DNA from: a virus
Taxonomy: Duplodnaviria > Caudoviricetes
Reading direction: 5' to 3' (one strand)
DNA: 58,673 nucleotides
IMG/VR virus record: IMGVR_UViG_3300030329_002153
Span: 1-58,673 of that record
The translations under genes and the position numbers were made by a program. Within the stretch, counting starts at the first letter, position 1. Each line of letters begins with the position of its first letter. Positions 1-35,991 of the stretch are shown here, in pieces. The notes under the pieces are model-generated. The model did no database searches. It was not told where the DNA came from and worked only from the letters and a program-made list of their open reading frames with translations.

Positions 1-85
1 ACGGTGGTCCGGGTTGGTGGCCGCCACAGCCGCCCGTCAAGCCACCGGGGCAGCGTCCGCCCGTCAAGCCACCGGGGCAGCGTCC
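1..85. repeat. Terminal direct repeat (copy 1), probable circular-assembly overlap
   Basis: Identical to 58589-58673; the reading frame is continuous across the join. Confidence 0.93.
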
Positions 86-1643
86 GCCCGTCAAGCCACC
101 GGGGCAGCGTCCACCCGTCAAGCCACCGGGACAGCGTCCACCCGTCAAGCCACCGGGACGGCCCGGTGGTGGACCAAGCTACGCTCCCGACTGGGTCGAT
201 CTAAGCCCCGGCCAGCCCAAGCTGATGGTGATGGTCGATTGGATAAATGATATTACGGGTGAGCGTAAACAGGTCACTTCCGGATATGGCCCCCCGGTGG
301 GAAGCGAAGGTTGGCGGCCCTTTAGACAGGGCGGCGGCCAGCAGCCTATAGACCCCGGCGGCATTCCGTCTGACGATGGCCAGCAGGTGGGCCGCCCGCC
401 GGTAGGCGGGGTGATTCCGCCGCCGCCGCCGGGTGGCTGGGATAAATTCCCAGAACATTGGGGCCAACCGCCACGACTGCAAGATAGGGGTCCGCAAGTT
501 AAGTTGCCCGGAAACTACGGGTGGGGTCAGGGTTCCATAATAGGCTGGATCCAGAGGAAGATGGAAGAGGACGCCCGAGTCGATCGCGGCCAGCAGCCTA
601 TAGACCCCGGCGGTGGCCAAGATGGTTGGTGGGGGCCTTCTGCTCCCGGCCGCCGCGACCGGGTATGGCATCCGGGCGGCAAACCCGTTTGGTGGCCAGC
701 AGCAGCAGGCACCAGCGGCCAGCAGCCTATAGACCCCGGCGGCATTCCGTCTGACGATCCGCCGGACGGAAAGTATTTCATCTCGTCCCGGCCCGGAGGA
801 CAGATCCCCGGTTACGAGTTCAGGCAGGGGCCACAAGGGGAGGGGTTCTACTGGGTTGGCAACCAGCAGCGCGGCGGCGGCGTCCCCCTTCCCGGCCAAG
901 GCGGCAGGCTTCCGGGTGGTGGCGCGCCCGGTGGCGCACCAGACCCCATCTGGGGTGGTCCGGGTCCAGCACCAGACTGGCGCGATACGCCCGACGTTAA
1001 ACCTAGGCAAGCTGGAAAGGGGAAGAATCGACCGCCGTGGGCCAAAGACCCCAAGATGAGCAACCCGCTCAACAGCACCAACTACCGGCAGCCAAACACC
1101 ACGCAGGGGTGGGCCACTTGGTGGAAGGAGCATTACTCATGGGGAGCCAATAAATCTGTCACCCACGCCAAGAATACAATCCTTGGCAAAGACCCCGGTG
1201 ACGGTCGTGGTCGACGTGGGGGGCTTGTGCTTTGGGGAGAAGAAAAGCTCGCGCGAAGGATATACGAGGAAGAAAAGCGAGAATACGTCGCTCGTATAGG
1301 TGGTGACTCAGACACTGCGGCGTATGCAAGGCAATCTAGAAACCTGTACCAGAGGGCGTTGGGTCTAATCCACATGGGTCTTTTCTCAGCCGAGGGACAC
1401 CCTGATTACAACATGGGTTCCGAAAAGAGAGCAATGGAAAAGAAAAGGGCGAAGCGCAAACGGATACGAGATCGCGACGAAGCAAATCAAAGAGCGATAG
1501 ACGAGGCATCAAAGGCACTGACAGAGCAGGCAAAAAAGAGAAGGGAAGAAGAGAACAGGCAGAGAGAGAAACATGGACTTCCTCCGATTCCGTGGGAACC
1601 CGTTCCCAGCTTTAGACCTCCGGGCGCAGTAGGAGCTAGATAA
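3..1643 (+). CDS. C-terminal part of a ~1180-aa Pro/Gly/Gln/Trp-rich low-complexity protein starting at 56689 and wrapping the join; probable virion protein
   Basis: Frame 3 is open from 3 to TAA 1641-1643 and is in phase with 56689-58588 after removing the overlap; PPVKPPGQR and GQQPIDPGG repeats; charged helical C-terminus. Confidence 0.8.
   Translation, partial: GGPGWWPPQPPVKPPGQRPPVKPPGQRPPVKPPGQRPPVKPPGQRPPVKPPGRPGGGPSYAPDWVDLSPGQPKLMVMVDWINDITGERKQVTSGYGPPVGSEGWRPFRQGGGQQPIDPGGIPSDDGQQVGRPPVGGVIPPPPPGGWDKFPEHWGQPPRLQDRGPQVKLPGNYGWGQGSIIGWIQRKMEEDARVDRGQQPIDPGGGQDGWWGPSAPGRRDRVWHPGGKPVWWPAAAGTSGQQPIDPGGIPSDDPPDGKYFISSRPGGQIPGYEFRQGPQGEGFYWVGNQQRGGGVPLPGQGGRLPGGGAPGGAPDPIWGGPGPAPDWRDTPDVKPRQAGKGKNRPPWAKDPKMSNPLNSTNYRQPNTTQGWATWWKEHYSWGANKSVTHAKNTILGKDPGDGRGRRGGLVLWGEEKLARRIYEEEKREYVARIGGDSDTAAYARQSRNLYQRALGLIHMGLFSAEGHPDYNMGSEKRAMEKKRAKRKRIRDRDEANQRAIDEASKALTEQAKKRREEENRQREKHGLPPIPWEPVPSFRPPGAVGAR
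31..159 (+). repeat. 27-bp coding tandem repeat (PPVKPPGQR), about 5 copies
   Basis: ccgcccgtcaagccaccggggcagcgt units; more copies at 58540-58673. Confidence 0.9.
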
Positions 1644-10477: not shown

Positions 10478-10499
10478 AGGCCGCCCCACCGGCTTCCAG

Positions 10500-10745: not shown

Positions 10746-10755
10746 CTTTTTCTGC

Positions 10756-10784: not shown

Positions 10785-10824
10785 TGCGTCCCACACAGAA
10801 CGCATGCGTGAGAGGAGAGAATGG

Positions 10825-12174: not shown

Positions 12175-12179
12175 ATCTG

Positions 12180-12479: not shown

Positions 12480-13353
12480 TCCGCACTCACTGAAGAACCA
12501 CCCGACAAACATTGAAATCTATGGTGACGTTGCCGACGACGACTTTGTTGACTCGTGCCGCAACGGAATCCTTGAGCCAATCATAGCCACCTCCGACGAT
12601 GTCATCGTCAGTGGTCACCGCCGGGTTCAGGCCAGCCGTATTCTTCAACACAAGGCTGTCCCTGTTCTTTACCGGGAAGACCTTGTCGACCCTCTGGATA
12701 TTGAGGAGGCTCTCCTGCTTGCAAACAAGCAGCGAGAGAAGACGAACGAGCAGAAGACTCGTGAGTACCGGCGACTCCTCGACATCGAGAAGCAGCGTGC
12801 TGCCATCAGGCAGAAGTCTGGAACCCCCGCCCCAGAGGGGGACAAAGGTCGGGCGGATGAACGGGCGGCAGCTTCGGCTGGTATGAACGTCAAGACTGCA
12901 CGCAAGGCATCCAAGGTTATGGATGTCATTGAAGCAGCGGAAGAGAGTGGTGACTCAGACGCAGCCAAGAAGCTATCCGACACCCTGAACAAGAATGTTG
13001 CCAAGGCGCACCGGGAAGCCACAAAGAAAGACACTCCGAAGCCAGACGGGGTGGGCATCCCCGCTTCCTTGGACCCAACATTCGATTCGTTACCTGTGTT
13101 CCAGTCACTGGTTACCAAGGTTGGCAACCTCAAGTCTGAGATTGCAAACCTGTCTGACTGCGAGGGCGGGGAGAGGATCCACCTCCCAGAGGTGGACATC
13201 TACCTGAACGACGTGGCATCGCACCTGAAGGCTGCACGACCGCACACCGTCTGCCCCTACTGTGGTGGCAATGGATGTGCTGAGTGTGACGAGCTTGGCT
13301 GGGTACACCAGAACAGGTACGACGGGTTCCCGAAGGAGATCAAGGGTGCGTGA
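12460..13353 (+). CDS. ParB/Srx N-terminal domain protein with C-terminal Cys motif
   Basis: LKNHPTN..IY, GILEPI, IVSGHRRVQA; C-terminal CPYCGGNGCAEC. Confidence 0.85.
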   Translation: MEITQVDPHSLKNHPTNIEIYGDVADDDFVDSCRNGILEPIIATSDDVIVSGHRRVQASRILQHKAVPVLYREDLVDPLDIEEALLLANKQREKTNEQKTREYRRLLDIEKQRAAIRQKSGTPAPEGDKGRADERAAASAGMNVKTARKASKVMDVIEAAEESGDSDAAKKLSDTLNKNVAKAHREATKKDTPKPDGVGIPASLDPTFDSLPVFQSLVTKVGNLKSEIANLSDCEGGERIHLPEVDIYLNDVASHLKAARPHTVCPYCGGNGCAECDELGWVHQNRYDGFPKEIKGA

Positions 13354-13403
13354 CCCGATGTGGTAAACTGGTGTTGAGCAGGACCACAAAAGGGAGGCGT
13401 ATC

Positions 13404-13586
13404 GTGGAAAGGATTCCAAACTGCCCTGAGTGCAGGGACCATCCTCTACTGGAGGAGTTGAAGAAAGACCCAACCACCGGAAAGTTCTGGTTCTTCGTGA
13501 GATGTCAGGCGTGTACACGCACAACAGTTGGACACAACATGCAAGAGGCAATCAACACTTGGATGGAGATGTGTAGAAAGGGGTAG
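13404..13586 (+). CDS. Small zinc-ribbon protein (Lar-like)
   Basis: CPEC...VRCQAC...EAINTW; GGGAGG RBS before a GTG start. Confidence 0.55.
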   Translation: MERIPNCPECRDHPLLEELKKDPTTGKFWFFVRCQACTRTTVGHNMQEAINTWMEMCRKG

Positions 13587-13587
13587 A

Positions 13588-15285
13588 GTGGCTGCAACAC
13601 TGCGGGACTATCAGTTGCAGGCCAAGCAGGACTCGATGTCGAGGTTCTCGAATGGGGTTCGAAGCGGCCTGATCGTTATGCCAACAGGAACAGGGAAGAC
13701 AGAGACCTTCCTTTCCATTGCACACAACTGGCCACAAGGACACGTCCTTGTTCTGGCTCACAGAGAGGAGTTGATCTGGCAACCGTGGCGACGGTGGAAG
13801 AAGAACACCGGAGAGTACGGCGACATCGAGATGGCTGAGTACCGCCGACCAAGGCTCAGTCTTTCCAACATAACATTCGCCTCAAAGGACACGCTGTACC
13901 GGGACCGCAGGTTGAGGGGTGCGTTCCCTGACCCGAAGAAGGTGGGGCTTATCATCATAGATGAGGCCCACCATGCCGTCCGGTCGAACAAGACTTACCA
14001 GAAGATACTGGATTACTTCGACCACCCAGACCTGTGTGTGCTGGGGGTGACTGCCACCCCTGACCGGGCAGACGAGAAGGCTCTCGGTCAAACATTCGAC
14101 GAGGTGCTATTCGATTACCCGCTACTGGATCCCAACGGTGGACCCAGTGCCATCAGTGATGGGTGGTTGTGCCCCATCCGGCAGCAGTATGTCACCGTCG
14201 AGGAGCTAAACTTCGACAGCATCTCCTGCCGGGGTGGTGACTTCGTGGACGCTGCCCTTGAGAGAGAGTTGGTGCGAGAACGGATTCTCCACCGGCTCAC
14301 CTCCCCCACCATACAGATGTCTGATGGGCAGACACTTGTCTTCTCGGCTGGGGTGAAGCAGGCCAGTCGGATGACGGAGATATTCAACCGGTACAAGCCA
14401 GCCAGTTCTTACTGTCTGGTCAGCCGGGTTGACAAGGACGACAAGCACGACGCAGTCATCCTGTCTCACGACAAGCAGGACAGACGCCGGATGCTGGACA
14501 ACTTCAGCAAGGGGGCGTTTCAGTTTGCAGTGAATGTTGGATGCTTGACCGAGGGGTTCGACTCACCTGCCGTTCGCACCCTGTCCATGGGAAGGATGAC
14601 AAGGAGCCGCAGCCTGTACGCACAGATGGCAGGGCGTGGCACAAGAGTCCTTCCCAATGTTATTGAGGGTGATGGCTGGAGGTTCGACACACCAGACGAG
14701 AGGAAGGCGGCTATCAAAGATAGTGATAAGCCCTACGTCACGATATTAGATTTCGTGGGGAACTCTCGGCACTCGCTTGTGTCTGCTGCTGACATACTGG
14801 GTGGCAGTTACGACGATGACGTTGTCGACAGGGCCAAGAGCAACGCCAAGTCTAAGGATGAGCGGGACGAAGTGGATGTGGCCGAGGAACTTCGCAAGGC
14901 AGCGGAGGAGGTTCGGGTCGAGAAGGAGAAGCGAGCAAGGATACGGGCGACCGCCAAGGTGAAGACTCGTACTGTCGATGTCTTCGGTGCCATCGGTGTT
15001 GTCTCCACACGGGAGCCGGGCTGGCACAAGGGAAGGCAGCCAACCACCAAGCAGCGTCAGGCACTGGAGAAGTTCAAGGTCGAGCCGCACGTCGTGGAGT
15101 CGATGTCTTTTCATCAGGCCAGCCAAGCACTGGACTCCCTCATCGACAGGTCTCGTCGTGGCCTTGCCACCTATAAGCAGTGCAAGCTGTTGAAGAAACA
15201 TAATGTTGGAACCAAAGACCTGACATTCAAGAAGGCGTCGTACCTCATCGGTCGTCTGGCTCGCAACAACTGGAGGCACCTGTGA
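13588..15285 (+). CDS. Superfamily 2 DEAH helicase (RadD/Res-like)
   Basis: LRDYQ, PTGTGKT, DEAHH, TATPDR, LTEGFD, QMAGRGTR motifs. Confidence 0.95.
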   Translation: MAATLRDYQLQAKQDSMSRFSNGVRSGLIVMPTGTGKTETFLSIAHNWPQGHVLVLAHREELIWQPWRRWKKNTGEYGDIEMAEYRRPRLSLSNITFASKDTLYRDRRLRGAFPDPKKVGLIIIDEAHHAVRSNKTYQKILDYFDHPDLCVLGVTATPDRADEKALGQTFDEVLFDYPLLDPNGGPSAISDGWLCPIRQQYVTVEELNFDSISCRGGDFVDAALERELVRERILHRLTSPTIQMSDGQTLVFSAGVKQASRMTEIFNRYKPASSYCLVSRVDKDDKHDAVILSHDKQDRRRMLDNFSKGAFQFAVNVGCLTEGFDSPAVRTLSMGRMTRSRSLYAQMAGRGTRVLPNVIEGDGWRFDTPDERKAAIKDSDKPYVTILDFVGNSRHSLVSAADILGGSYDDDVVDRAKSNAKSKDERDEVDVAEELRKAAEEVRVEKEKRARIRATAKVKTRTVDVFGAIGVVSTREPGWHKGRQPTTKQRQALEKFKVEPHVVESMSFHQASQALDSLIDRSRRGLATYKQCKLLKKHNVGTKDLTFKKASYLIGRLARNNWRHL

Positions 15286-15674
15286 GGTGCAGCACAAACT
15301 CATTTGTGACACCGCAGTATGAACTTCAGTTGATTGCCGTGGGTATGCTGCTGGCCAAGCCTTCGCTGCTGGATTCCGTAGCACCAGAGGACTTCGCGGA
15401 CAGCGAGTTGAATGCTTTGGTTGGAATGCTGAAGGTGCTGGACAACGGGGAGAGGAAGGGTGAGCTTCGCAGTTGGCTCAACAACAAGGGGTGTAAGTAT
15501 GACGGCAACGCAGTCGAGACAGTGCTGGACAGGGTGAAGCTCGATGGGAAGTACGGCAAGGCTTTGCATTTCATCACCCGTATGTCTGAACTGGCAGAGG
15601 ATGGCAGCGAGAAAGGGAAGAGGGAATTTGTCAGAGCGTTAGTCAATGCCAAGCAACTGCTTGGTTTTGAATAG
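15282..15674 (+). CDS. Hypothetical protein, weak resemblance to the DnaB N-terminal domain
   Basis: 130-aa ORF overlapping the helicase stop; GMLL..P......APEDF. Confidence 0.45.
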   Translation: MRCSTNSFVTPQYELQLIAVGMLLAKPSLLDSVAPEDFADSELNALVGMLKVLDNGERKGELRSWLNNKGCKYDGNAVETVLDRVKLDGKYGKALHFITRMSELAEDGSEKGKREFVRALVNAKQLLGFE

Positions 15675-15952
15675 CCCAGCACTGTGCCGCTGGGTTACAA
15701 TCTATTCTGATTGTGTGGCACGGCCCCCGTCTGGAGCGTGGGACTGGCGATGGACACTGAAGCCTCGCTGGGAAATACCATCCCTCCAGACGTGGACGTG
15801 AGGTCTTTGATGCAGCGTCGGTAAACAATTGCGGCGGGGGTAGGGGTAATGGAAAAAGACTGGGAGCAAGAAGCAAAAGAGATTATCGAGCCGTACTCGG
15901 ATGGGGTCGGGGAGGCTGTGATCCACCCAGAGATTCAGGAAAGAATCGAGAG

Positions 15953-16354
15953 ATGCCTAAGAAATTGCCAGCAAGGGAAGAGTTCACAATCGTAATGACT
16001 CTTCCGGACAAGAGTTTGTCACCAAACTCTCGGAGTCACTGGGCTGTGAAGTCTCGACACAAGGCTGCCCACCGAAACGAGGCAGCGGTACTGACACGTC
16101 AGGCTCTGGTGGATGTGGGTCTAGGAGTGGACTGGTCCACCGTCTTGGTCAAGCCCTACTTCTTCTACCCCACGAAGAGGAAGAGGGACAGGGACAACTG
16201 TTCTGCAATGTTGAAGGCAGCAAGGGACGGCATAGCCGATGCACTCCGAGAGTGGGGCATCATCGAGGATGACGACTGCTTCATCCCGATGCCGTCGTCC
16301 ATCTCGGTGGATCGCGAACGTCCTCGTGTGGAGATTGTTATCTCCAACCAGTAA
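15953..16354 (+). CDS. RusA-like Holliday junction resolvase
   Basis: LSPN.R.HW, RDRDN...MLKA..DGIADAL, IEDD, PRVEI. Confidence 0.85.
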   Translation: MPKKLPAREEFTIVMTLPDKSLSPNSRSHWAVKSRHKAAHRNEAAVLTRQALVDVGLGVDWSTVLVKPYFFYPTKRKRDRDNCSAMLKAARDGIADALREWGIIEDDDCFIPMPSSISVDRERPRVEIVISNQ

Positions 16355-16359
16355 GTTTT

Positions 16360-16599
16360 TTAACTGGTCGGCCTATTCACGTTTGCGTGTTCGAGTCCAA
16401 GCAGCCAGTCCGTACTAACCCCCAGAGGGATAGCCAGACGGGCCAGTGCCCAAGCGTAGATGTCATACCGACCGCTTTCCCAATGGGAAACATTGGACTG
16501 ATAGGTGTTCGCTCTGTCTGCTAGTTCTCTCTGAGTCCAGCCCTTGCTGATGCGTGCTTCCCGCAGGCGTTGGCCGATTTCCTTGGCCGACGCAGTCAT
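16360..16599 (-). CDS. XRE-family HTH transcriptional regulator
   Basis: IGQRLREAR..KGWTQRELA.....QSNVSHWESG...LGVSTDWLLG. Confidence 0.9.
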   Translation of the reverse strand: MTASAKEIGQRLREARISKGWTQRELADRANTYQSNVSHWESGRYDIYAWALARLAIPLGVSTDWLLGLEHANVNRPTS

Positions 16600-16637
16600 G
16601 CTATTGACCGCCGCTCTTATTTATAACATTGTGAATG

Positions 16638-16690
16638 TAGGGGGTGGCATCCATGCCAGCCCCCTAGGAACCAGCAGGCATCCTGCCCGC
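16638..16690 (-). promoter_or_regulatory. Two GGA-loop hairpins upstream of the XRE gene (candidate CsrA sites or REP-like elements)
   Basis: Minus strand: gcgggcaGGAtgcctgc and ggggctggcatGGAtgccacccc. Confidence 0.55.
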
Positions 16691-16725
16691 ATCACCCGAT
16701 AACATTTTACGAGAAGGGGACGCCG

Positions 16726-16929
16726 ATGGACATTCGATTTCCAGAGTCTCACCCAATTTGGTCCATACTCAGAACGGTCATCCTTATTCTGGGCCTTACT
16801 GGACTGCTCTACCTGAACGCCAACAACTTCGATGCGACTGAGTTGACAACAATCATTGAGATGATTGTGCTTGCTGGCGGGTTCGAAGCAGCCAAGAAAG
16901 TTCTCGCCAAAAAAGACAGTGGAGGTTGA
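16726..16929 (+). CDS. Holin-like small membrane protein
   Basis: 67 aa, two hydrophobic segments, basic C-terminus; AAGGGG RBS. Confidence 0.55.
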   Translation: MDIRFPESHPIWSILRTVILILGLTGLLYLNANNFDATELTTIIEMIVLAGGFEAAKKVLAKKDSGG

Positions 16930-16953
16930 CACCACGCACGGGCGCGTTACCAT
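16926..16953 (+). promoter_or_regulatory. Possible sigma70 promoter in front of the protease
   Basis: TTGACA-16-TACCAT. Confidence 0.4.
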
Positions 16954-16975
16954 ACACACCATGGTTATGGTAAGG

Positions 16976-17884
16976 ATGAATACCCTTGCGGTAATTCTGA
17001 TGGCCTGCTTGCAGGTCAGTGCGGCAGAACCCCTGACCTCCAGCCGGGAAAGACTGGCGAGTGTGGAGGTCGGCGGGTGTTCTGGTACTATCATCTCAGT
17101 GAATGGTAAGCGTGCGTTCGGGTTGTCGGTTGCACACTGTGCCAAGGTTGGTGACAAGGTTAGGCTGACATTCGCTGACGGCAGCACTGGTGGTGGGAAG
17201 TGGGTCATGGCAGATCAGGCGAGGGATCTCAGCCTGTTCGAGTGTAAGAGTAGCGACATCCTAGGACACACCCCGTTAGGGGTGAGGTCAACAGCGGTCA
17301 CCGCACTGGGTCGGCACGGCAGAAAAAGAATTGAATACTCCGCTGAAGAAGAGGTGACGGATGTCAGTAGCGGGAAGAAGATACGCCGCTCTGAGTACCT
17401 GATGAGTGATGGTGTTCTGAAGAACGGTGACTCGGGCGGCGGTGTGTTTGCACTTGGTAAGTTGTGTGGTGTGATCTCCCATGGGCACGACGACGACAAG
17501 ATGTATGCGTGTCGTGAGTCAGACCTGAAGGTGTTCATTCTCTCAGGTGAGAGGCAGCTTGGTCTGGACCTAAGTCCAGAGGGTTGGGGGGACAAAGATA
17601 GAACAAGAGAAATCCTTGCCTTGAAGAACAGGGTGAAGGAACTTGAGGATGCACTGGCCGACATCCGTTCCCAACTGGCGGATGTCGGGAAGGCTGGTCC
17701 TGTTGGTCCCGCTGGTCCCGCCGGGCCAACAGGACCAGCAGGCAGGGATGGCAAGGATGCCACGGTGGATATGTCTGCTGTGGTGAACCGGATAAAAGAA
17801 TTGGAGTCGTGGCAGGATAACTTCCGAGCCACTGTCCGCATCAGGCTAAGGCCGAAGGAGTTACAAGATGGCGTCGAGCGTTGA
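16976..17884 (+). CDS. Secreted trypsin-like serine protease with coiled coil and collagen-like repeat
   Basis: Signal-like MNTLAVILMACLQVSAAE; catalytic AHC, DLSL, GDSGG; GPVGPAGPAGPTGPAGRDGKD. Confidence 0.9.
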   Translation: MNTLAVILMACLQVSAAEPLTSSRERLASVEVGGCSGTIISVNGKRAFGLSVAHCAKVGDKVRLTFADGSTGGGKWVMADQARDLSLFECKSSDILGHTPLGVRSTAVTALGRHGRKRIEYSAEEEVTDVSSGKKIRRSEYLMSDGVLKNGDSGGGVFALGKLCGVISHGHDDDKMYACRESDLKVFILSGERQLGLDLSPEGWGDKDRTREILALKNRVKELEDALADIRSQLADVGKAGPVGPAGPAGPTGPAGRDGKDATVDMSAVVNRIKELESWQDNFRATVRIRLRPKELQDGVER

Positions 17885-18077
17885 CCTTCAAGCGTTGTTG
17901 GAAGCATCCACTGGCGAGCGTATCGGACGGCAGTCTGACGCACAGCAGACAACATTGGTGTTGATCGACCGGGTCTTCACCAAAACATTGTCCGAGCCTG
18001 ACGTGATGGAGGCTGCCGCTGCACGGCAACTCCTCATGCGTGAAGCTCCCATCGGCAGCAGCAGCCCCGGTAGCTAG
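17868..18077 (+). CDS. Hypothetical 69-aa helical protein
   Basis: AAGGAG RBS; overlaps the protease end. Confidence 0.7.
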   Translation: MASSVDLQALLEASTGERIGRQSDAQQTTLVLIDRVFTKTLSEPDVMEAAAARQLLMREAPIGSSSPGS

Positions 18078-18310
18078 TGTCAGTTGAACTGACCAGTTCG
18101 GAGCAGCGAGGTGAGGCGGCCCGCCTTCTCTCGCTTGATGAGCATGGACTCGAAGTCGAGTCCGTAGCCATGGCCCTGCGCCTGTTCGAGCAACAGGAAA
18201 GGGCCATGGCTAAGCAGGTGGAGATAGATCGTGAGTCAACCACACAACTGCGAGACATTGGCAGCAGAAACCTCTCACCAGAGGAACGTCTGGAAAGCCT
18301 TGATGTCTAA
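18077..18310 (+). CDS. Hypothetical 77-aa coiled-coil protein
   Basis: Coupled TAGTG start; Glu/Arg/Leu-rich. Confidence 0.6.
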   Translation: MSVELTSSEQRGEAARLLSLDEHGLEVESVAMALRLFEQQERAMAKQVEIDRESTTQLRDIGSRNLSPEERLESLDV

Positions 18311-18689
18311 TGTGTGGGCGCACGATGTCATGGAGAGGATGAGACTGCGCCGAAAGGTGGAGGCAAGGCACATGGGGTTAGGTGACATTGATGTTGGGAC
18401 ATTCCCCTCCCATCCACCCAATGTTGTAATCAACGAAGGGAATGGGGCAAGCAAGTTGCTGTCCGGATTGCTTCTGGCTGCCGCCGGGGGTGGTGGGGCA
18501 CTGGGCTTGGCATCATTTTTGTCACCGGCAGTGTCAAGTCCGACACCTGTTGTCGCACCGGATGACAAACCTGTAAGTGCCGATGACAAATCTGTCATCC
18601 CCAGTGAGTTCATCTATGACATCGAGATCATGAGCGTGGACGGAGGGTTGAAAGTCGATGCCACCAGAGTGGACGGAACTGACCAGTGA
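18303..18689 (+). CDS. Hypothetical membrane protein (one Gly-rich TM segment)
   Basis: LLSGLLLAAAGGGGALGLASFL followed by a Pro/Ser linker. Confidence 0.6.
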   Translation: MSNVWAHDVMERMRLRRKVEARHMGLGDIDVGTFPSHPPNVVINEGNGASKLLSGLLLAAAGGGGALGLASFLSPAVSSPTPVVAPDDKPVSADDKSVIPSEFIYDIEIMSVDGGLKVDATRVDGTDQ

Positions 18690-19080
18690 GGACGGGTTCC
18701 TCTACTGCTACAAGTGCGAGGTGCTTCGGGTTGTTGACGGCGACACCGTTGATATCAACCTGAACCTTGGATGCAATGTTGTGTTCAAGGTTAGGACGAG
18801 ACTCATCGGGATCGACGCGCCCGAAATGCGGGGCGACGAGAAGGAGAAGGGCAAAGACGCACGCGACCACTTGGTCAAGCTGTGTTGCCGGTACTCCCTG
18901 AACCTCCGGAAGGAGGGGAAGTTCTCTGGCAATGCCAAGATGTACGTCAGAACCCACAAGGACAAGCAAGGATCCTTCGGCAGATACCTTGTTGAGCTTG
19001 TGGGTCTGGACTCTTATGACAATATTGTAGTCATCAACCAGAAGATGGTTGAGGACGGGCACGCTGTGTCTTCCTTATGA
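18658..19080 (+). CDS. Thermonuclease (SNase-like) family nuclease
   Basis: RVVDGDTVD, RLIGIDAPE, GSFGRYL, INQKMVEDGHA. Confidence 0.93.
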   Translation: MPPEWTELTSEDGFLYCYKCEVLRVVDGDTVDINLNLGCNVVFKVRTRLIGIDAPEMRGDEKEKGKDARDHLVKLCCRYSLNLRKEGKFSGNAKMYVRTHKDKQGSFGRYLVELVGLDSYDNIVVINQKMVEDGHAVSSL

Positions 19081-19441
19081 TGTCGGGCAGGGCGTCAGAG
19101 TAGACAGCGTACCCTTTCCGCTTCAGGTGCTTGGCGACCAGTCGCTCAAGGTGCAAGGCATCTTCGCTTGAGTATCCCACCAGCCTGCTGCTCATCCAGA
19201 TCGGGCTGATCCGTATGCCAAACTCTCGCACCAAGAAGGACGACGTGTCCTTCCCGTTCGTGAGCTTACCCTTGTGCTGGAGCCACCGCTCCTCTGGATC
19301 TATCCCGGTGACACCAACATAGAACGCACCCGACTTCTTTCTGACGTGCTTGTTCTTTCGAATGAACTTTGCAATTGCGGTTTTGTTTTTCTTGACTGCC
19401 TCCCAGTCAAGGCGAATGGCATACGCTTGGTACTCACTCAT
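19034..19441 (-). CDS. GIY-YIG-like domain protein
   Basis: YAI.L...FYVGVTG.DPEERW.QH, E.LVA..L..KGY; GGAGGTG RBS. Confidence 0.65.
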   Translation of the reverse strand: MSEYQAYAIRLDWEAVKKNKTAIAKFIRKNKHVRKKSGAFYVGVTGIDPEERWLQHKGKLTNGKDTSSFLVREFGIRISPIWMSSRLVGYSSEDALHLERLVAKHLKRKGYAVYSDALPDIIRKTQRARPQPSSG

Positions 19442-19634
19442 CGTCACCTCCGAACAGGAACTCAGTGATAGCTTCTGTAACCTCAGACACCTTCGCATTC
19501 TTGACCGTTAAGTTGCGGCCTATATTTCCGATCACCACCTTGCCGCCTTTTCCCAGAAGCCTAATAGTTACCCGAACACTTCCTTGGTTGTCGTCGTGCC
19601 GCTTTGGCTTGCCGCCTCTCTCAAACAGTGCCAT
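19434..19634 (-). CDS. Hypothetical protein
   Basis: 66-aa ORF in a tightly packed operon. Confidence 0.65.
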   Translation of the reverse strand: MALFERGGKPKRHDDNQGSVRVTIRLLGKGGKVVIGNIGRNLTVKNAKVSEVTEAITEFLFGGDDE

Positions 19635-19645
19635 GTCTGTACCTT

Positions 19646-19981
19646 TCAGTTGAGTTCGTAACCACCGTTGCCCATCCTATCCTTCAGGTAGGGCTTTAGT
19701 TCTTGCAGCAGGTCGGCCAGCAACTCGCTGGGCTGTTGGCCTATGGCCTCTGCGTCCTCCTCTTCGTCCTCCCTAGATGCGGTGATGATTCTGTAGTCAG
19801 CAGACGCAATGCTGTAACGAGACAGCCAAAGCGAGAGCAGCGAAGACTCTCGCGTGATGATGTCGGAGTTGATTGGCAGATTAGCCAGAAGCATCCGGAG
19901 CCTCTCCGCTGACTTCGCTACCCCCTCGATGGCCTTGGCCATCCTCTCCTCCGTCTCCTTCTTCAGTTCTTCTCTGGTCAT
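19646..19981 (-). CDS. Hypothetical protein
   Basis: 111-aa ORF with AGGA RBS. Confidence 0.7.
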   Translation of the reverse strand: MTREELKKETEERMAKAIEGVAKSAERLRMLLANLPINSDIITRESSLLSLWLSRYSIASADYRIITASREDEEEDAEAIGQQPSELLADLLQELKPYLKDRMGNGGYELN

Positions 19982-20276
19982 GCTTGTTCCTTTCTGGATC
20001 TAATATTGCAATCAACTCGTATATCCCGTTGAAGGATACATGAGTGTGATCGGTTTCGTATTCACTGGCTTGATGTACCCACAGCCCTTCCGCTACCCCA
20101 TCTCTTGGGGTGAACCATTCGATTACAACATTGCCAGTGCCATCAGCACACAGTTCGACACTTGCTCCCATCGGTCTCGACCTGTCCTTCGGTGGACCTT
20201 GGCATAGCCTGACCTCATAGTCTTCGATCAGGTTACACAACTCCACCAGACTTAACCCGCTCCCTGAGTTTGTCAT
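19881..20276 (-). CDS. Hypothetical protein
   Basis: Fills the gap between neighbours; start uncertain; overlaps both sides. Confidence 0.5.
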   Translation of the reverse strand: MTNSGSGLSLVELCNLIEDYEVRLCQGPPKDRSRPMGASVELCADGTGNVVIEWFTPRDGVAEGLWVHQASEYETDHTHVSFNGIYELIAILDPERNKHDQRRTEEGDGGEDGQGHRGGSEVSGEAPDASG

Positions 20277-21012
20277 CTTTCTTCCATGCCTTGTATGCTC
20301 GGGCACAGCGTTGGTCCTTCCATGGACGAGACCACCGTACCCTTCGCTTGGTAATCTTCCCTTCAGTAACGAACTTGTCTTCGACAGCGTCACTGATTTC
20401 CACCCACGTCTTGCCATGCTTGTCTCTCATATCGACAATCCACAGCATCATCTTCACCATTTCCACATCAGGTATCAGGTTCTTGTCCTTGCCACTGCCG
20501 TGAGTCCAGCCGAGTGGAGCATTGCAAGAATACTTCTTCCCTGATTTCTTCAGGACATCCAGCGCAGCCTTGGTCCTCTCTGACTTGACCCGTGATTCCC
20601 ACCGTGCCATCGCCGCCATGATGGTCACGAACAACTCACCGTTTGGTGACTTCACATCAACATTGATGTCAAGGAAGTGGGCGTTGATTCCTCGCTTCTC
20701 CCATAGGGACCATGTGTTGAGGAAGTCTCTCGTGTCCCTGAAGCCACGGTCTAGCCTGACGAACAGGACGTGGTCGCCCGGCTCAAGTGCGGTGTTCAGT
20801 GCCGCACCTTCTGGCCTCTGGAGCAGAGGCTTCTTGAATGCCGACACCCCTTCTTCCCTGAAGAATCCACCACGTTCGAGATCCTCATAGTCAATCTTGG
20901 TTCTGATGTATTCGAAGTACCGGTCGAGAGTCTTAGCCTGTCCCGATAAGGACAGACCAGACTCTGCCTGTTCTTCCGACGACACCCTGATGTAGCCGTA
21001 GGCTTTAGGCAC
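20233..21012 (-). CDS. Serine recombinase (resolvase/invertase family)
   Basis: YGYIRVSSEEQ catalytic Ser, RPEG, RLDRGFR, E...KSERTK. Confidence 0.93.
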   Translation of the reverse strand: MPKAYGYIRVSSEEQAESGLSLSGQAKTLDRYFEYIRTKIDYEDLERGGFFREEGVSAFKKPLLQRPEGAALNTALEPGDHVLFVRLDRGFRDTRDFLNTWSLWEKRGINAHFLDINVDVKSPNGELFVTIMAAMARWESRVKSERTKAALDVLKKSGKKYSCNAPLGWTHGSGKDKNLIPDVEMVKMMLWIVDMRDKHGKTWVEISDAVEDKFVTEGKITKRRVRWSRPWKDQRCARAYKAWKKDDKLRERVKSGGVV

Positions 21013-21108
21013 TGGGCTTCTCCCCTAATGCAAGGCTTGACCATGGCATGTTCCCCTCTCTCAGTTTGCAGTAGACATCTATCAGTACAGTCACCACCTC
21101 GCTACCCA

Positions 21109-21543
21109 TTACATTGCTCCCAACAGTTTCGTTGCCACAGCTTGTCGGTAATGTTGGTCTAATCCTCCGGGGTCTCCGACATTACTAACCCAGAGGTGTT
21201 CAGCAAGTCGTCCAATCTTGCACGATGTGCCATCCCACCACCGTTCACCACACCAACAGGTGATGCTACCTCCCACATGGTCACCCAGTAAGGCAGCCCA
21301 GCTGCCAGACCAGAGTTGTGTGGTACACCCCGGCGTTTCACTGTATGGACCAGAGTATTGTCTGGATGGCTGGCTGGTGTGTTCGGAACGGTAGTTCCCA
21401 TACACAAGGTGTGCCGCCAGTTGCAGCCAGCAACCTTGGCGTTCCGGAAGGAACAGGTTCTCATCCCTGATCCACCTCTCCGTGTCCTCACCACCCTCGA
21501 ATACCATGCCGCAGACGGGGCACCAGCATGTTCTACTTTCCAT
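21109..21543 (-). CDS. Cys/His zinc-finger-like protein (paralogue of 23751-24200)
   Basis: WCPVCG, LAAHL, CWCG, EHL. Confidence 0.65.
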   Translation of the reverse strand: MESRTCWCPVCGMVFEGGEDTERWIRDENLFLPERQGCWLQLAAHLVYGNYRSEHTSQPSRQYSGPYSETPGCTTQLWSGSWAALLGDHVGGSITCWCGERWWDGTSCKIGRLAEHLWVSNVGDPGGLDQHYRQAVATKLLGAM

Positions 21544-21853
21544 TGCTCTTCCACTCCTCTGACAAGAGGCAGTACACCCAAGAACCCAACACTAGTAACG
21601 TAAGCGTTCCGTAGTTTAGCTCGCCAATATCCATTGTCAATCTCCATGAGGAGTTGGTTGTAAGAATCCGCGCCATGGTTGGTCGGGTAGAACTTGCGGT
21701 TAGTTCCGGAGGACCACAGTCAAGATGAACTGTGGGGTGGCTTGCTGAACCACCCACCCTGCGGCACTCATGGCTTACCGGCCCCTTGGCTACAACATTA
21801 CTGCCAATGACAACAGTTGCTTCGCCATGTCGAACGGGGCAGTCCGTAGCCAC
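21533..21853 (-). CDS. Hypothetical protein with C-terminal TM segment (possibly two short genes)
   Basis: Coupled to neighbours; LTLLVLGSWVYCLL. Confidence 0.45.
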   Translation of the reverse strand: MATDCPVRHGEATVVIGSNVVAKGPVSHECRRVGGSASHPTVHLDCGPPELTASSTRPTMARILTTNSSWRLTMDIGELNYGTLTLLVLGSWVYCLLSEEWKSNGK

Positions 21854-22611
21854 TAGAAGGACCGCAGCAGTTCAGCCGTCAACTCCTTCCGCTCCCTAAC
21901 CTTGGCACCGTGCCGAAGGTTCGAACCGGGAGACACGTTCATCACCCTTCGGTTTGTAACTCGAATGTTGTTGGAAACCAGACGGTCAGCCATCAACGTG
22001 GGGTCGTTGTATTGACTACGCTCTTCGTTCAAGTCGTGGTCTTTGTCCCGTCTCCACGTCAGCTTTCCGTCAGCTTTTCTGGCAACTGCTTCGTAGATAA
22101 AACAGCCCCAAGACTTGTTATAGTTATCGCATGTGGCATCACTGTGAACGAACCCAATGACCTCACCTTCCTCTGGAATCCAGAGGTCGTCTGGCTCAAC
22201 GTCCCACTCCTCGATGATTGAGAGGTTCCCACATCCACAGCAAGCCACCCGGTGCCCATCCCTTCCATGGGTCGGGGTTGCCATCCACTGGGTGTAATCG
22301 TTCTGTGTATGTTTCATACCGAACTCCCAGTCCTCCACATGTTCAGGGAAATGTTGCTTCCGTCCCTCAAGAGGGACCAGTGCAACTGCGACGTTCACAG
22401 CGTAAACCGTGGCACGTCTCCCGGTGTTGTCGGTGTTGATAGGCGATCCAATCAGATCCTTGCCCGACTTCTCGACCCCCTTGCCCCTCATTCCCAACGC
22501 ATTGCAGTATGGGCACTGCTTCCACATCCAGAACCCTTGCTGGCCCCACCGATCACACAGATCGTTCTCAGCAAATGGTGCTTCACGGTTTCCGAGTTTC
22601 CAATTAGTCAT
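21853..22611 (-). CDS. Hypothetical protein with CxxC pairs
   Basis: 252 aa; CPYC and CCGC; GAGGA RBS. Confidence 0.75.
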   Translation of the reverse strand: MTNWKLGNREAPFAENDLCDRWGQQGFWMWKQCPYCNALGMRGKGVEKSGKDLIGSPINTDNTGRRATVYAVNVAVALVPLEGRKQHFPEHVEDWEFGMKHTQNDYTQWMATPTHGRDGHRVACCGCGNLSIIEEWDVEPDDLWIPEEGEVIGFVHSDATCDNYNKSWGCFIYEAVARKADGKLTWRRDKDHDLNEERSQYNDPTLMADRLVSNNIRVTNRRVMNVSPGSNLRHGAKVRERKELTAELLRSF

Positions 22612-22651
22612 CGCAAAATCCTCGCTTGAAAAAAAACCTGATGGGATTCCC

Positions 22652-23749: not shown

Positions 23750-23750
23750 G

Positions 23751-33289: not shown

Positions 33290-35779
33290 GTGGCTAATCC
33301 CTATCGTGATATCGTTACTGGTGATTACCACACCCCGAGGTATGTCACGCGAGGTGAGGGGCAGCCGCAATTTTCCAAGGTGGCTGACCGGGAAGCGTTC
33401 CGTTACGACAGGACGCGAGACGCAATTCACGGTGTCGACTTTTCTGGTGTGGCGAGGGATATGGGTCTGGGGAGCGAGCAGGCCGCCAAAGACTGGTTCC
33501 AAAGTCTGGGGGTCCAGCAGCGTCAGAAAGTCAGGGAATCGTGGCCTCTTTTCAAAACGGAAAAGTATGGCCTCATGCCGTTCCAGATTGTTGATAAGGA
33601 GGACTTGAGAGATCCGGGCAGGAGGACGGACAGGGGCGGTGACCCAACTCTGTATGAAATGTTTCGTGGAGAACTGGTTGACCCTGTCCTCGACATGCTC
33701 AACATCAACGAGAAGGAAAGGCACACAGATCCATTCCATGGCGGCGAACCAAGGCCGACGATGTTTCGCGCCGCAGACAAGTTGAACAGAGACTTGGGCC
33801 AGATGCTTGGCACAGAGAAAGGCACAGCCACGGGTGGGCTGGGGACTCTGGCCGAAGACTACGAAGAGAATGTTGCAAAGCCGTTTCGTAGAGACTTGCC
33901 CGGAACTTACGTTCCGATGTATGCGCAGGGTCTCGGGATCTGGAGTCCAGAAGAGGCGTCTGCCTATAGGGACAGGGTGACCAACAGGCCGAACCTCGCT
34001 GAGTCGATTGGCTACGACCCGCTGAACCTGTTCGAGGTTGGTGCCCTGACGAAGCTGGTTCAGGGCGGGCGGATGGCTAGAGGCGCAGGGTCTCTGGAGG
34101 ATATCGCCAAGTTCCGAAACCTCCACACCCCTGCAAGGGATACTCTGTTCAACCGAATGACTGGAGAGTTCGATCCCGGCAGGAGGCAGGCCATGGGCGG
34201 GATGGCTGCTGGTGCTGCCGCTCTTGCCGGTCTGAAGGGCGCGACGATGGCTGGACCCGAGGCAGCCAAGGTGGCTTCCACGGTGGCGCATGTCTCCGGT
34301 GTTGATCCGACCGGACCCAGTGTAGTTCTGGAGGGTCTTCTGAAGCACGGCTCTGATAAAGGTCGAGCCGTACTCTTGGACTCGATAGGTGATGCTGCTC
34401 GCCAGTCTGGCAAGGGCGGTGATCCTATTGAGTGGGTTCACAGACCCAACCTAGACAAGGCAAACAGAAGACGACAAGGACAGCAGACAACGCGATACGA
34501 GTCCTTGGGAGACCTTCTCAAGGCGGAGAAAAGAAAAGTAACGTCGGGGGATCTGAAACACCTAGACCACACAGATAAAGATGTGCAGCATGCCGTCGCG
34601 CAAGAATGGGGAAAAAAATACCCCCACCTTGCCAAAAAGTTCAACGAGGGAACACTCGATATTGGCAGGTACGCCGAAGAGCAGGAAAACTTGAGCAAGT
34701 TCTGGAATAAACTGTACAAATACCATGCTCGTGGTCGAGGTGCCGCAAAGGGGCTGAGTTTCACCGAGTATGCAAACTTGCCTCGCACTAGAAAGAGAAT
34801 TGCCAAAGTAGAAGAAGCAAACAAATATTACCTACAACACACCCCAGAAGGGTCCATGGATGAAATGATGAAGTCTGGACGAGCCGAGGGGGCATCAGAT
34901 GTCTATGGCGATGACCCACTCTCTTACCATGCCCAAAGTGCAGGCATGGACGAAGACGTGCGAGATATTATGTGGGAGATGGACCCAGACGAAATAGAAC
35001 CGGGATCGCACTGGTTCGGTGCCGACGAGGCCATGGACGATCTAAAGAGCGACATGATGTACGCCATGGATGACACCGAAATTTGGGGCGACAAGTCCAA
35101 ATACCTAGGCTCCTTGGCTCACGAGGGGAAACGTCAATACATACCAGAGGTTGAGCAGGGGTTGCGGCAGGCACTTGGCGTGGAAACCCCTGCCGGGCAG
35201 CATGCGGCCCAGACTCTTGACGATTTCCTTTTGCACTCAATTCACGAAATGGAGAGATCGAAAGCCGCATCGCATCCGTGGCCAATAACAAGAACTGATA
35301 AGCACGGACTGCATGAGTTATACGGAGACGAGGCGATAAGGTATCTCCAGAAGCAGAGGATGGCTGTCAAAAAGAACGGAATATTCGCTGCTGATGAAGG
35401 TGTGCTACACGAGTGGGCCGATAACGACTTTGTTGGGTATATGGATGCCAAGTGGGTTAGCGCAAGTTCGCCCGGACCAAACAGAACAATCGGAACTATT
35501 CCAGACAGGGAGAGGTACTTACAGGAACTCACAGACCACGGAAGGCCGAGATCCGACGCAGGAACGAGATATTCTGAGTCTGGCCAGCAACCGTTCAGGC
35601 TTCCGTTCGACAAGACCCTGTCGGTGGGTCCGTCGCAAGCACCCAAGAGGCGGGTCAGTTTGCAGGAGTCCCTCAAGAGGGCCGGGGCACCACCATCAGA
35701 GGTGGAGGCCGCAGGTGGAGCATTCGATGCGGTCGATCCGCCCCTTATCAAAATGTTGAAAAGGCATAGAAGGAAATGA
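33290..35779 (+). CDS. Large hypothetical protein, probably virion-associated
   Basis: 829 aa; YDPLNL motif; internal RRQAMGGMAAGAAALAG segment. Confidence 0.7.
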   Translation: MANPYRDIVTGDYHTPRYVTRGEGQPQFSKVADREAFRYDRTRDAIHGVDFSGVARDMGLGSEQAAKDWFQSLGVQQRQKVRESWPLFKTEKYGLMPFQIVDKEDLRDPGRRTDRGGDPTLYEMFRGELVDPVLDMLNINEKERHTDPFHGGEPRPTMFRAADKLNRDLGQMLGTEKGTATGGLGTLAEDYEENVAKPFRRDLPGTYVPMYAQGLGIWSPEEASAYRDRVTNRPNLAESIGYDPLNLFEVGALTKLVQGGRMARGAGSLEDIAKFRNLHTPARDTLFNRMTGEFDPGRRQAMGGMAAGAAALAGLKGATMAGPEAAKVASTVAHVSGVDPTGPSVVLEGLLKHGSDKGRAVLLDSIGDAARQSGKGGDPIEWVHRPNLDKANRRRQGQQTTRYESLGDLLKAEKRKVTSGDLKHLDHTDKDVQHAVAQEWGKKYPHLAKKFNEGTLDIGRYAEEQENLSKFWNKLYKYHARGRGAAKGLSFTEYANLPRTRKRIAKVEEANKYYLQHTPEGSMDEMMKSGRAEGASDVYGDDPLSYHAQSAGMDEDVRDIMWEMDPDEIEPGSHWFGADEAMDDLKSDMMYAMDDTEIWGDKSKYLGSLAHEGKRQYIPEVEQGLRQALGVETPAGQHAAQTLDDFLLHSIHEMERSKAASHPWPITRTDKHGLHELYGDEAIRYLQKQRMAVKKNGIFAADEGVLHEWADNDFVGYMDAKWVSASSPGPNRTIGTIPDRERYLQELTDHGRPRSDAGTRYSESGQQPFRLPFDKTLSVGPSQAPKRRVSLQESLKRAGAPPSEVEAAGGAFDAVDPPLIKMLKRHRRK

Positions 35780-35991
35780 TGGAACCCGGAAACTGGATCG
35801 CCGTTATTGCCATCACTATTAGTGTTGTCGGAGCCGCCGCTGGGTGGATGTTCCGCATGGCCAGAGGCATGACGAAGCTGGAGGCACTCGTCCACCGTGT
35901 GGAAAAATGTGAGAAAGCGGTTGAAAAAAGTTCAGCAAAACTAGAGGATCATGCTGTGAGGCTGGTGAAGCTGGAAACAACCAGCGTGTGA
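35776..35991 (+). CDS. Small TM + coiled-coil protein (holin/hemolysin-like)
   Basis: WIAVIAITISVVGAAAGW followed by heptads ending RLVKLE. Confidence 0.6.
   Translation: MMEPGNWIAVIAITISVVGAAAGWMFRMARGMTKLEALVHRVEKCEKAVEKSSAKLEDHAVRLVKLETTSV

Follow-up and report, generated by a model that had tools for sequence, protein, structure and literature searches.

The stretch of DNA analysed here, referred to as the window, is the whole of virus record IMGVR_UViG_3300030329_002153 (58,673 nt). It is a complete virus genome, with a CheckV completeness of 100% and an 85-nt direct terminal repeat. Positions 16,726 to 19,080 hold a compact six-gene cassette centred on an exported serine protease, which we regard as a candidate lysis or exit module. 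A preliminary description, made from the letters of the sequence, had read this region as a candidate lysis cassette that lacks an endolysin, and every element it listed there was found to be present. The cassette genes and the features of the protease are as follows.

16726..16929 (+), TM2, a holin-like membrane protein of 67 amino acids (aa), from hydrophobicity and conservation
16961..17884 (+), exported S1 (HtrA/DegP-like) serine protease, from Pfam Trypsin_2, an AlphaFold2 (AF2) model and Foldseek
16961..17026 (+), signal-peptide-like N-terminus of the protease, residues 1-22, with a hydrophobic core at residues 8-22 and then VSA-AEP
17135..17434 (+), catalytic triad codons: His59 (17135-17137), Asp89 (17225-17227) and Ser158 within GDSGGG (17432-17434)
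17591..17764 (+), coiled-coil helix (residues 211-241) and eight collagen G-x-y triplets (residues 245-268), from the model helices and Pfam Collagen (E 0.0016)
17774..17881 (+), C-terminal tail 'type A' (LExWxxNFRAxVRIRLxPK), from alignment
17868..18077 (+), sm1, a 69-aa acidic soluble protein with no hydrophobic segment
18077..18310 (+), sm2, a 77-aa very acidic soluble helical protein (17 D+E, 9 K+R)
18303..18689 (+), sm3, a 128-aa bitopic membrane protein starting at ATG 18303
18658..19080 (+), SNase-type nuclease (PF00565, phrog_452)

Analysis of the protease showed that Pfam Trypsin_2 (PF13365) matched residues 72-203 at 35.9 bits, against a cut-off of 27.6, and matched in a six-frame search at E 8.5e-11. 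The open reading frame (ORF) is open from a TTG at 16865, and ATG 16976 is a possible alternative start, since the Atlas record begins at residue 6. The AF2 model, built from 39 sequences, had a predicted local distance difference test score (pLDDT) of 84.9, with values of 93-98 over residues 31-200. It displayed a double beta-barrel chymotrypsin fold followed, after residue 205, by a helix, the collagen segment and another helix; the coiled-coil helix was taken from this model, and the collagen triplets were read from the sequence. Across the 39 sequences His59 and Ser158 were invariant and Asp89 was conserved in at least 90%. Among the 15 closer ones the whole triad was invariant, as were Cys40 and Cys60, which flank the His loop. 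The position of this Cys pair is that of the chymotrypsin His-loop disulfide, and the pair is consistent with folding outside the cytoplasm. The preliminary description of a signal-peptide serine protease with an intact triad, fused to a coiled coil and a collagen repeat, is therefore upheld.

The best Foldseek matches in the PDB were MucD, Rv3671c, Deg1, DegS and HtrA1 (E 4e-9 to 1e-7), with target TM-scores of up to 0.73 to DegS, HtrA1 and Rv3671c. Sequence-profile matches in the PDB were to DegP, DegQ and HtrA1 (E 2e-5 to 8e-4). No PDZ domain was found by Pfam or in the AF2 model. The protease domain is HtrA/DegP-like but PDZ-free, which is new here. With HtrA, DegP, DegQ and DegS (MEROPS S1C) it shares the chymotrypsin fold, the His-Asp-Ser triad and the GDSGG motif, together with a periplasmic export and a trimeric habit that are predicted here. 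It differs from them in having a coiled coil, eight collagen triplets and a swappable small tail instead of PDZ, in keeping the AHC/Cys pair typical of chymotrypsin-type S1A enzymes, and in its apparent restriction to phages. A collagen segment implies three chains, and by this analogy we infer that the protease is a trimer.

A first viral scan with the single protease sequence gave no match. When 5.8 billion clustered proteins were searched, 74 matched at E ≤ 1e-3, and 67 of these carried a GDSGG-like motif. Among these 67 members, 64 had at least four consecutive G-x-y triplets and 57 had a hydrophobic N-terminal segment, while their C-terminal tails fell into at least three unrelated types (A, 33; B, 11; C, 5; unclassified, 18). 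Three proteins, P0026, P0040 and P0059, carried an extra N-terminal extension of 70-80 residues with additional hydrophobic stretches. With regard to a possible holin-protease fusion, the P0059 extension matched DUF7940 in Pfam at E 0.033 only, and no holin family. The nearest Atlas clusters were 100% viral, and a scan of one genome for each of 185,579 species found no true relative of the protease. The sole match of that scan (L028) was a chance match to EGWGDKDRTRE in a glycosyltransferase-like ORF from an Acidobacteriaceae metagenome-assembled genome (MAG), and was rejected. The cultured-phage collection contained no match for the protease or for the large terminase (TerL). As judged from these sequences, the protease family is phage-only.

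The collagen segment also gives many tail-fibre matches in PHROGs, and in one relative (G009) the protease gene directly follows the structural block, as might be expected if the protease were linked to the virion, either as a head-maturation enzyme or as a fibre-like cutter of surface layers carried for entry. Set against this are the signal-like N-terminus of 57/67 members, the conserved Cys40/Cys60 pair, the failure to match any prohead-protease family in Pfam or PHROGs, and the position of the gene among non-structural genes, 19 kb from the capsid gene (17 kb vs 37 kb). A part in virion maturation, which the preliminary description had raised as an alternative, is unlikely because the protease is exported and its gene is not in the head module. 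We consider a virion-linked role of either kind very improbable.

The other cassette genes were then compared with their orthologues. For all six genes the rate of non-synonymous differences (pN) was well below that of synonymous differences (pS), which were saturated; they are therefore real genes. From the protease onwards the genes overlap, by 17 nt (protease/sm1), 1 nt (sm1/sm2), 8 nt (sm2/sm3) and 32 nt (sm3/SNase), so that the three small ORFs are coupled as had been proposed, two of them soluble and one with a single transmembrane (TM) segment. TM2 has a strong hydrophobic segment at residues 11-29 (Kyte-Doolittle (KD) value 1.86) and a weaker second one at residues 39-56 (KD ~1.5) that carries conserved acidic residues. 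Its C-terminal tail is Lys-rich and basic, and a Shine-Dalgarno-like AAGGGGA lies 6-7 nt 5′ of its ATG. Profile searches matched TM2 to no Pfam or PHROG family and to no known holin family. The earlier label of a holin-like gene with two TM segments is confirmed: a small membrane protein with a charged C-terminus lies beside the enzyme gene, with a weaker second segment and no match to a holin family.

Neither sm1 nor sm2 matched a Pfam or PHROG family, and sm1 also had no usable Atlas match. Profile searches of the PDB gave no match for sm1 (best E 1.7), sm2 (0.11) or sm3 (0.82). Both sm1 and sm2 were without a TM segment, signal peptide or lipobox, and no conserved lipobox was found in the small ORFs of the cassette. 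In sm3 a conserved cytoplasmic head of ~50 aa is followed by a Gly-rich TM segment at residues 52-73, a Pro-rich linker and a small strand-rich C-terminal tail. The proposal that the small proteins are spanin or pore analogues does not fit, because sm1 and sm2 are soluble and the TM segment of sm3 comes after a 50-aa cytoplasmic head. Complex prediction for the protease (residues 23-307) with sm1, sm2 and sm3 scored 0.01-0.02, which carries no weight either way. The thermonuclease said to close the cassette was recovered as an SNase family member, at a borderline 21.1 bits for PF00565 (cut-off 21) and at E 3.4e-26 for phrog_452 (endonuclease). The SNase homologue of one relative (G020:C1:54573-55052) has a hydrophobic N-terminal segment (MVLTIAFLAAVAAPASTAV), which the window copy is without; some of these nucleases may thus be exported or membrane-anchored.

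Among the cassette genes sm1 was the most constrained, with a pN of 0.15-0.21 (pS ~0.7) vs 0.32-0.53 for the others, and it was 80-87% identical where the protease was ~39-45% identical. Such very strong constraint would be expected of a protein that binds a conserved partner, and sm3 would have the topology of a single-pass anti-factor (conserved 50-aa head, one TM segment and short outer tail). The best structural matches of the protease include DegS and MucD, and the genes are translationally coupled. These points could indicate a switch of the DegS/RseA type, in which the periplasmic protease would cut the outer tail of sm3 and free its cytoplasmic head with sm1 and sm2. The freed factors would either bear on a conserved target in the host or set phage timing, possibly that of lysis, for which control of the T4 holin T with RI and RIII is a comparison. 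However, the PDZ sensor domain is absent, in profile searches neither sm1 nor sm2 matched a sigma-factor or DNA-binding family, and a collagen stalk with swappable tails is foreign to DegS. Such a switch seems to us distinctly improbable.

To survey the gene neighbourhood, loci from a viral-contig scan were compared. Presence of each gene at the 25 loci was counted by tblastn, with several near-duplicates counted separately. Denominators for downstream genes were the 17 loci with at least 2.2 kb 3′ of the protease, and those for upstream genes were all 25 loci (at least 700 nt 5′). Both sm1 and sm3 were present in 16/17 loci, and sm2 and SNase in 11/17 each; in five more loci the sm2 position was occupied by an 82-aa positional analogue aligning at 30%. 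The exception among the 17 was L025, which carried analogues of the same build. TM2 was found at 18/25 loci (46-54% identity), each time directly 5′ of the protease, and RusA likewise at 18/25. The cassette is therefore kept as a unit across loci. Homologues of TM2, sm1, sm2 and sm3 gave 0 tblastn matches in 5 complete relatives that have no protease; the small ORFs occur only together with the protease.

The four-gene core of protease, sm1, sm2 and sm3 was observed in three contexts. It follows a RusA or RuvC-like gene in the window type and L026, it follows a replication-type gene in G001 and G002, and in G009 it comes directly after the gene for a giant virion protein, with which the structural block ends. 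The G009 protease is only 24% identical, and it has the signal peptide, coil and collagen and is succeeded by genes for 81-, 77- and 165-aa proteins, the last with a TM segment; the 219-aa ORF 5′ of it appears alpha/beta hydrolase-like by eye, with no Pfam family. Relative G008 is syntenic with the window throughout; what G003 has in common with it is the early module and the cassette, and almost none of the structural genes. In G001, G002 and L026, TM2 is replaced by a gene for an 83-106 aa protein with a coiled coil and a C-terminal TM segment, which overlaps the protease start. The G001 and G002 versions are 58% identical (E 1e-35), and no significant family match was found for any of the three. 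XhlA, a membrane protein of PBSX/SPP1-type lysis modules in Bacillus prophages, has the same coiled-coil and C-terminal TM build as the genes that replace TM2. It differs in that the window itself has TM2 and in that the three replacing proteins do not match a family significantly. A G010 protein of this build did match phrog_689 'holin' (E 6e-5) and Pfam XhlA (E 0.058).

Taken together, we tentatively interpret the region as a phage lysis or exit module whose effector would be an exported trimeric protease and not a known peptidoglycan hydrolase, a reading that we prefer while giving it somewhat less than an even chance. It draws on the pairing of a TM gene with the protease, the non-orthologous swap of that TM gene, the slot after a resolvase gene, an endolysin-like modular build, and a subtilase in sister phages (see below). 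A tailed phage needs a lysis trigger that acts on the membrane. In the whole genome the only membrane or exported ORFs on the coding strands were TM2, the protease, sm3, a 71-aa ORF at 35776 and a doubtful one at 30797-31030, and the lysis genes are probably among these few. Lambdoid phages keep their lysis genes after a Holliday-junction resolvase gene, and the window cassette follows one (RusA). The modular build would resemble that of endolysins in that one catalytic chassis carries at least three types of tail.

Under the lysis reading, the protease would be made with a Sec-type signal peptide and fold outside the cytoplasm. It would trimerize through the coiled coil and collagen segment, and the swappable C-terminal tail would aim it at an envelope target, which may be a protein of the envelope or else the peptide moiety of the wall. 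The role of holin-like trigger would fall to the product of the small gene immediately 5′ of the protease, TM2 here and the coiled-coil and TM protein in distant relatives. At the inner membrane the system may be held or timed by bitopic sm3, together with sm1 and sm2 in the cytoplasm.

Several known systems are comparable in part. In the canonical holin-endolysin-spanin cassette of lambda (S-R-Rz/Rz1), as here, a small membrane gene lies directly 5′ of an envelope-directed enzyme, with tight coupling, a post-resolvase position and a mosaic membrane component. The window differs in that its enzyme is an S1 protease and not a glycosidase, amidase or known endopeptidase, that it has no lipoprotein or N-terminal-TM spanin pair, and that it adds two soluble acidic proteins, one highly conserved. 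Secreted or signal-anchored endolysins that work with pinholins, namely P1 Lyz and those of phage 21 and fOg44 (Lys44), are exported by the host Sec system before lysis, as is predicted for the window protease. With such export the membrane protein would be a trigger and not a channel. Those enzymes are muramidases, whereas the one here is a protease. The LysB of mycobacteriophages is a cutinase-like esterase found beside a true endolysin, LysA. It resembles the candidate role proposed here as a lysis-cassette serine hydrolase directed at an envelope layer other than peptidoglycan, but it works beside LysA, and no endolysin was seen in the window. A precedent for the catalytic class comes from Lysobacter. 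According to one report (PMC12250508), its S1-family proteases L1 and L5 hydrolyse the peptide bridges of peptidoglycan and lyse bacteria, which suggests that the target could be wall peptide as well as an envelope protein. L1, L5 and alpha-lytic protease resemble the window enzyme as secreted S1-family serine proteases; they differ in that they serve bacterial predation, have a pro-region, carry no stalk and are not known to take part in phage lysis. Enzymes of the Lysobacter type were not among the best structural matches listed for the window protease.

The presence of an endolysin was examined at profile level. No lysozyme, amidase, transglycosylase, M15, M23 or NlpC/P60 match was obtained for the 80 ORF translations of the window (Pfam, E ≤ 0.01-0.1; PHROGs, E ≤ 1e-3). 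When the 38 unknown ORFs were searched against PHROGs at E ≤ 5, no endolysin was found, and the only lysis-type matches were weak ones for the 71-aa ORF at 35776. Six-frame searches of the window with PF00959, PF01510, PF01464, PF13539, PF05838 and PF05708 likewise gave no endolysin. The earlier statement that this complete genome has no recognizable endolysin was thus confirmed for the window at profile level. Among the ORFs scanned in G001-G003 (93-100% complete) there was no canonical endolysin; the early region of G003 is covered through homologues of its genes among those scanned in the window or L007.

Several observations weigh against the lysis reading, the first of them from an extension of the search to the clade. 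The clade set comprised 21 records, namely 17 of at least 37 kb, out of 80 TerL-related loci, plus G000-G003. Six-frame searches with PF00959, PF01510, PF01464 and PF13539 matched in 0/21 records, and a canonical endolysin was equally absent by Pfam from 286 ORFs (85-650 aa) of G010, G022, G019 and G020, which are 97-100% complete and have no S1 protease. A PF05838 match in G020 (13.6 bits) was below cut-off, contained 3 internal stops and was rejected. The absence of an endolysin is real at profile level but clade-wide, and is not specific to protease carriers. The argument of the preliminary description from an endolysin-free genome therefore survives as an observation on the window and loses force as evidence, since it is equally true of four complete protease-less relatives. 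It cannot by itself mark the protease as the lytic enzyme, and the endolysins of the clade may be unrecognizable. The ORF-based scans are also not exhaustive, because the subtilase gene of G022 was missed by ORF picking and found in six frames. Five complete relatives carry neither an S1 nor an S8 protease. The solved proteins nearest to the protease by structure and profile (DegP, DegQ, DegS, HtrA1 and MucD) act in the quality control of proteins and in regulated proteolysis and are not known to lyse walls. In addition, sm1 and sm2 are soluble and acidic, lysis proteins are usually far less conserved than sm1, and the window cassette closes a replication/recombination block, not a late block. 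Lastly, three cassette-bearing relatives carry a peptidase that may be their real wall hydrolase, as follows.

This peptidase, Peptidase_C92 (a permuted NlpC/P60-type), was the only wall-hydrolase candidate among the ORFs scanned in cassette-bearing relatives, and occurred in G001, G002 and L026. In G001 it is a 182-aa ORF directly 5′ of the SNase gene (G001:C1:44838-45386), in G002 it forms the C-terminus of a 711-aa ORF directly 5′ of SNase (G002:C1:32027-34162), and in L026 it lies inside the cassette, between sm3 and SNase and again directly 5′ of the latter (L026:3394-3987). The window is without it: a six-frame search with PF05708 gave no match at E ≤ 10, and a custom profile built from the C92 proteins of the three relatives reached E 1.9 at best when run with filters off. 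C92 was also absent from G003. PHROGs places the C92 proteins in phrog_1128, 'enoyl-CoA hydratase/carnithine racemase-like', a label that clashes with Pfam.

These findings bear on the possibility of a cryptic endolysin, a divergent peptidoglycan hydrolase in an unannotated ORF or a giant virion protein, with the protease only assisting, for example by cutting outer-layer or tether proteins, in the manner of mycobacteriophage LysB alongside LysA. About half of the ORFs are without a family, recognizable endolysins are missing throughout the clade, C92 peptidases stand beside the module in three relatives, and the structure models cover two proteins only. Yet PHROG searches at E ≤ 5 gave no weak lysis-type match except for the 71-aa TM protein, and neither the custom nor the Pfam C92 profile matched anything in six frames. 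On balance we think a hidden endolysin unlikely.

The two structure predictions were of the protease and of the product of 46107-46649 (+), a 180-aa ORF just after the portal gene. It is the one small core gene without a family, and is present in 8/8 TerL-clade genomes compared (28-58% identity). Its model was of middling quality (pLDDT 71); no PDB match was found by Foldseek at E ≤ 0.001, and no lysozyme-like fold was seen. A wide structure search gave as best match a phage head-to-tail interface chain, at Z 4.0 with a root-mean-square deviation of 2.1 over 40 aligned residues. The 71-aa ORF with weak matches is as follows.

35776..35991 (+), second lysis-type candidate, 71 aa, with an N-terminal TM segment and a coiled coil, from weak profile matches

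These matches were to PHROG holin and Rz-like families (E 0.006-0.2) and to DUF7365 (E 0.009). The ATG of this ORF overlaps the stop codon of the preceding ORF (33290-35779), whose 829-aa product has no family, and no homologue of the 71-aa protein was found among the relatives compared. A 106-aa ORF of similar build lies 3′ of the subtilase in G022 (14259-14579).

Subtilases of the Peptidase_S8 family were identified in G010 (Pfam, E 3e-45) and G022 (six-frame search), the two closest complete relatives without an S1 protease. The S1 protease occurred in 8/21 records, and in 5/12 of those at least 90% complete; S8 occurred in 2/21, and no record had both. The two subtilases, G010:C1:1278-2321 (-) and G022:C1:9849-10895 (+), are ~348 aa long, share 42% identity and show no evident signal peptide. 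In G022 the gene stands after a RuvC-like gene and a small ORF whose C-terminus is hydrophobic, and ahead of several ORFs for exported or membrane proteins. In G010 a 45-aa TM ORF comes after the subtilase gene, and across the terminal repeat there are further membrane or exported ORFs and the coiled-coil and TM protein that matches phrog_689. An extended form of the lysis reading would hold that this clade of marine tailed phages exits without any peptidoglycan hydrolase, and that serine proteases in the lysis slot, either the exported, collagen-stalked S1 trimer with membrane partners of its own or S8 in sisters, do the lysing. We put this forward as a speculative and unlikely generalization. 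If it were true, either the integrity of the host envelope would depend mainly on protein, or this protease class would cut the peptide cross-links of the wall.

The uneven distribution of the module is also what might be expected of non-lytic envelope remodelling, in which the exported protease would trim surface or periplasmic proteins of the host and other, unrecognized genes would lyse the cell. Its targets might be receptors, for superinfection exclusion or to avoid loss of progeny on debris, or envelope sensors of defence. The module is indeed accessory, since 8 of the 21 related records have it and 7 with a completeness of at least 97% do not, and it moves with the early/replication module among phages with unrelated structural genes. 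The HtrA-like fold is in keeping with remodelling, the variable C-terminal tails suggest variable protein targets, and another TM and coiled-coil candidate for lysis exists at 35776. Points against remodelling are a membrane gene tightly coupled upstream and swapped non-orthologously, as at holin positions, and the post-resolvase position, replaced in G009 by the end of the late block. Moreover, an S8 protease fills the same slot in relatives, and no other candidate for a lysis enzyme was found. In our judgement remodelling is an unlikely alternative.

Evidence on the host is slight. The Planctomycetota-like host of the preliminary description has a weak basis in one named TerL relative, labelled Thermoguttaceae, at 52% identity on a 6.6 kb MAG contig. 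The proteolysis of a protein-rich wall or S-layer proposed with it is a hypothesis. A bacterial Atlas cluster with Trypsin_2 and collagen (score 0.91) is labelled mostly Chloroflexota, which is again a weak hint. In one marine metatranscriptome library, contigs matched 28/30 bins of positions 5001-25000 at 99% identity or more, and one 593-nt contig spanned 17842-18434. These matches could reflect DNA carry-over, and the contigs indicate presence only, neither level nor timing.

The remainder of the genome was assigned with PHROGs and Pfam, which left about half of the window ORFs without a family. The principal landmarks outside the cassette are as follows.

16360..16599 (-), XRE-type helix-turn-helix (HTH) regulator, divergent from the cassette (Pfam HTH_19, E 1.8e-13)
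37159-38274, capsid gene
40966-42678, large terminase gene

An XRE gene next to the cassette was peculiar to the window; in relatives RusA is followed directly by the membrane-protein gene, and by tblastn an XRE homologue was found elsewhere only in L025, at a different location. On the same strand before the cassette lie HTH, CsrA, Gp157/Gam-like, ParB-like, helicase and RusA genes. The CsrA-family RNA-binding regulator (10654-11007 (+), Pfam E 6e-19) has, as listed, an N-terminal extension of ~57 aa, and CsrA homologues open the early block in G002, G003, G008, G010, G022, L007 and L021. The opposite strand (19034-33230) carries genes for GIY-YIG, a small serine recombinase, a MoxR-type ATPase with a DUF2201 VWA/metallopeptidase protein, an exonuclease and single-stranded DNA-binding protein (SSB). 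The MoxR-type AAA_5 ATPase gene adjoins that for the DUF2201 'putative metallopeptidase' and VWA protein (24275-26982 (-)), a pair kept in G008 and G021, and the DUF2201 gene has Pro/Glu/Gly-rich direct repeats at 25045-25228. The 3′ ends of the SNase (+) and GIY-YIG (-) genes overlap by 47 nt (19034-19080), with no terminator-like site between the convergent blocks. A scan of 15600-19800 for promoters and terminators gave 1 and 2 sites, respectively, vs shuffle means of 1.7 and 3.6, and hence no excess.

The capsid and terminase genes are accompanied by those for an SU10-like portal and adaptor, by fibre-like genes and by a succession of very large ORFs rich in Pro, Gln and Gly. The portal ORF (43181-45955) has long CAG/Gln-rich tracts at 43510-43840 and 45310-45510. 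A 718-aa fibre-like ORF contains four tandem copies of ~243 nt (81 aa) at 50548-51816, and over part of its length is 54% identical to a G001 ORF. The two copies of the terminal repeat (bases 1-85 and 58589-58673) indicate that the genome is a 58,588-bp circle or a permuted molecule, and the ORF that runs off the right end resumes in frame at 3..1643. The resulting Pro/Gln/Gly-rich ORF of ~1181 aa (56689..(junction)..1643) spans the genome junction and contains PPVKPPGQR units, encoded by a 27-nt tandem repeat (1-166 and 58511-58673) in which the 85-nt repeat is nested. Four further large ORFs with no family follow it (1643-10335). At the place where the window has these five separate large ORFs, G001 and G002 have giant ORFs with no family (4469 and 3000 aa, respectively). 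A 3301-aa ORF with ddrB-ParB and 'large polyvalent protein' domains lies ahead of the early block in G003 (G003:C1:23033-32938).

To our knowledge, all tailed phages that have been studied well use a peptidoglycan hydrolase to open the cell wall. Literature searches uncovered no account of a module like this one, of a part for trypsin- or HtrA-like proteases in phage lysis, or of lysis by Planctomycetes phages, and trypsin-like or serine proteases go unmentioned in the main text of a 2025 survey of viral lytic proteins (PMC12596118). What is new here is a core conserved at about 20 loci, under purifying selection and in three genomic contexts, a swap of the TM gene, and small ORFs tied to the protease. 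Even if the module proves non-lytic, it is a well-defined five- to six-gene system that includes a 69-aa protein under unusually strong constraint, and the protease, with its collagen stalk and exchangeable tails, could be of interest for enzyme engineering. As a phage-only module with an exported protease, and with a subtilase in sister phages, it is a testable candidate for a different way of leaving the cell, and it would also hint at the nature of the envelope of an uncultured marine host.

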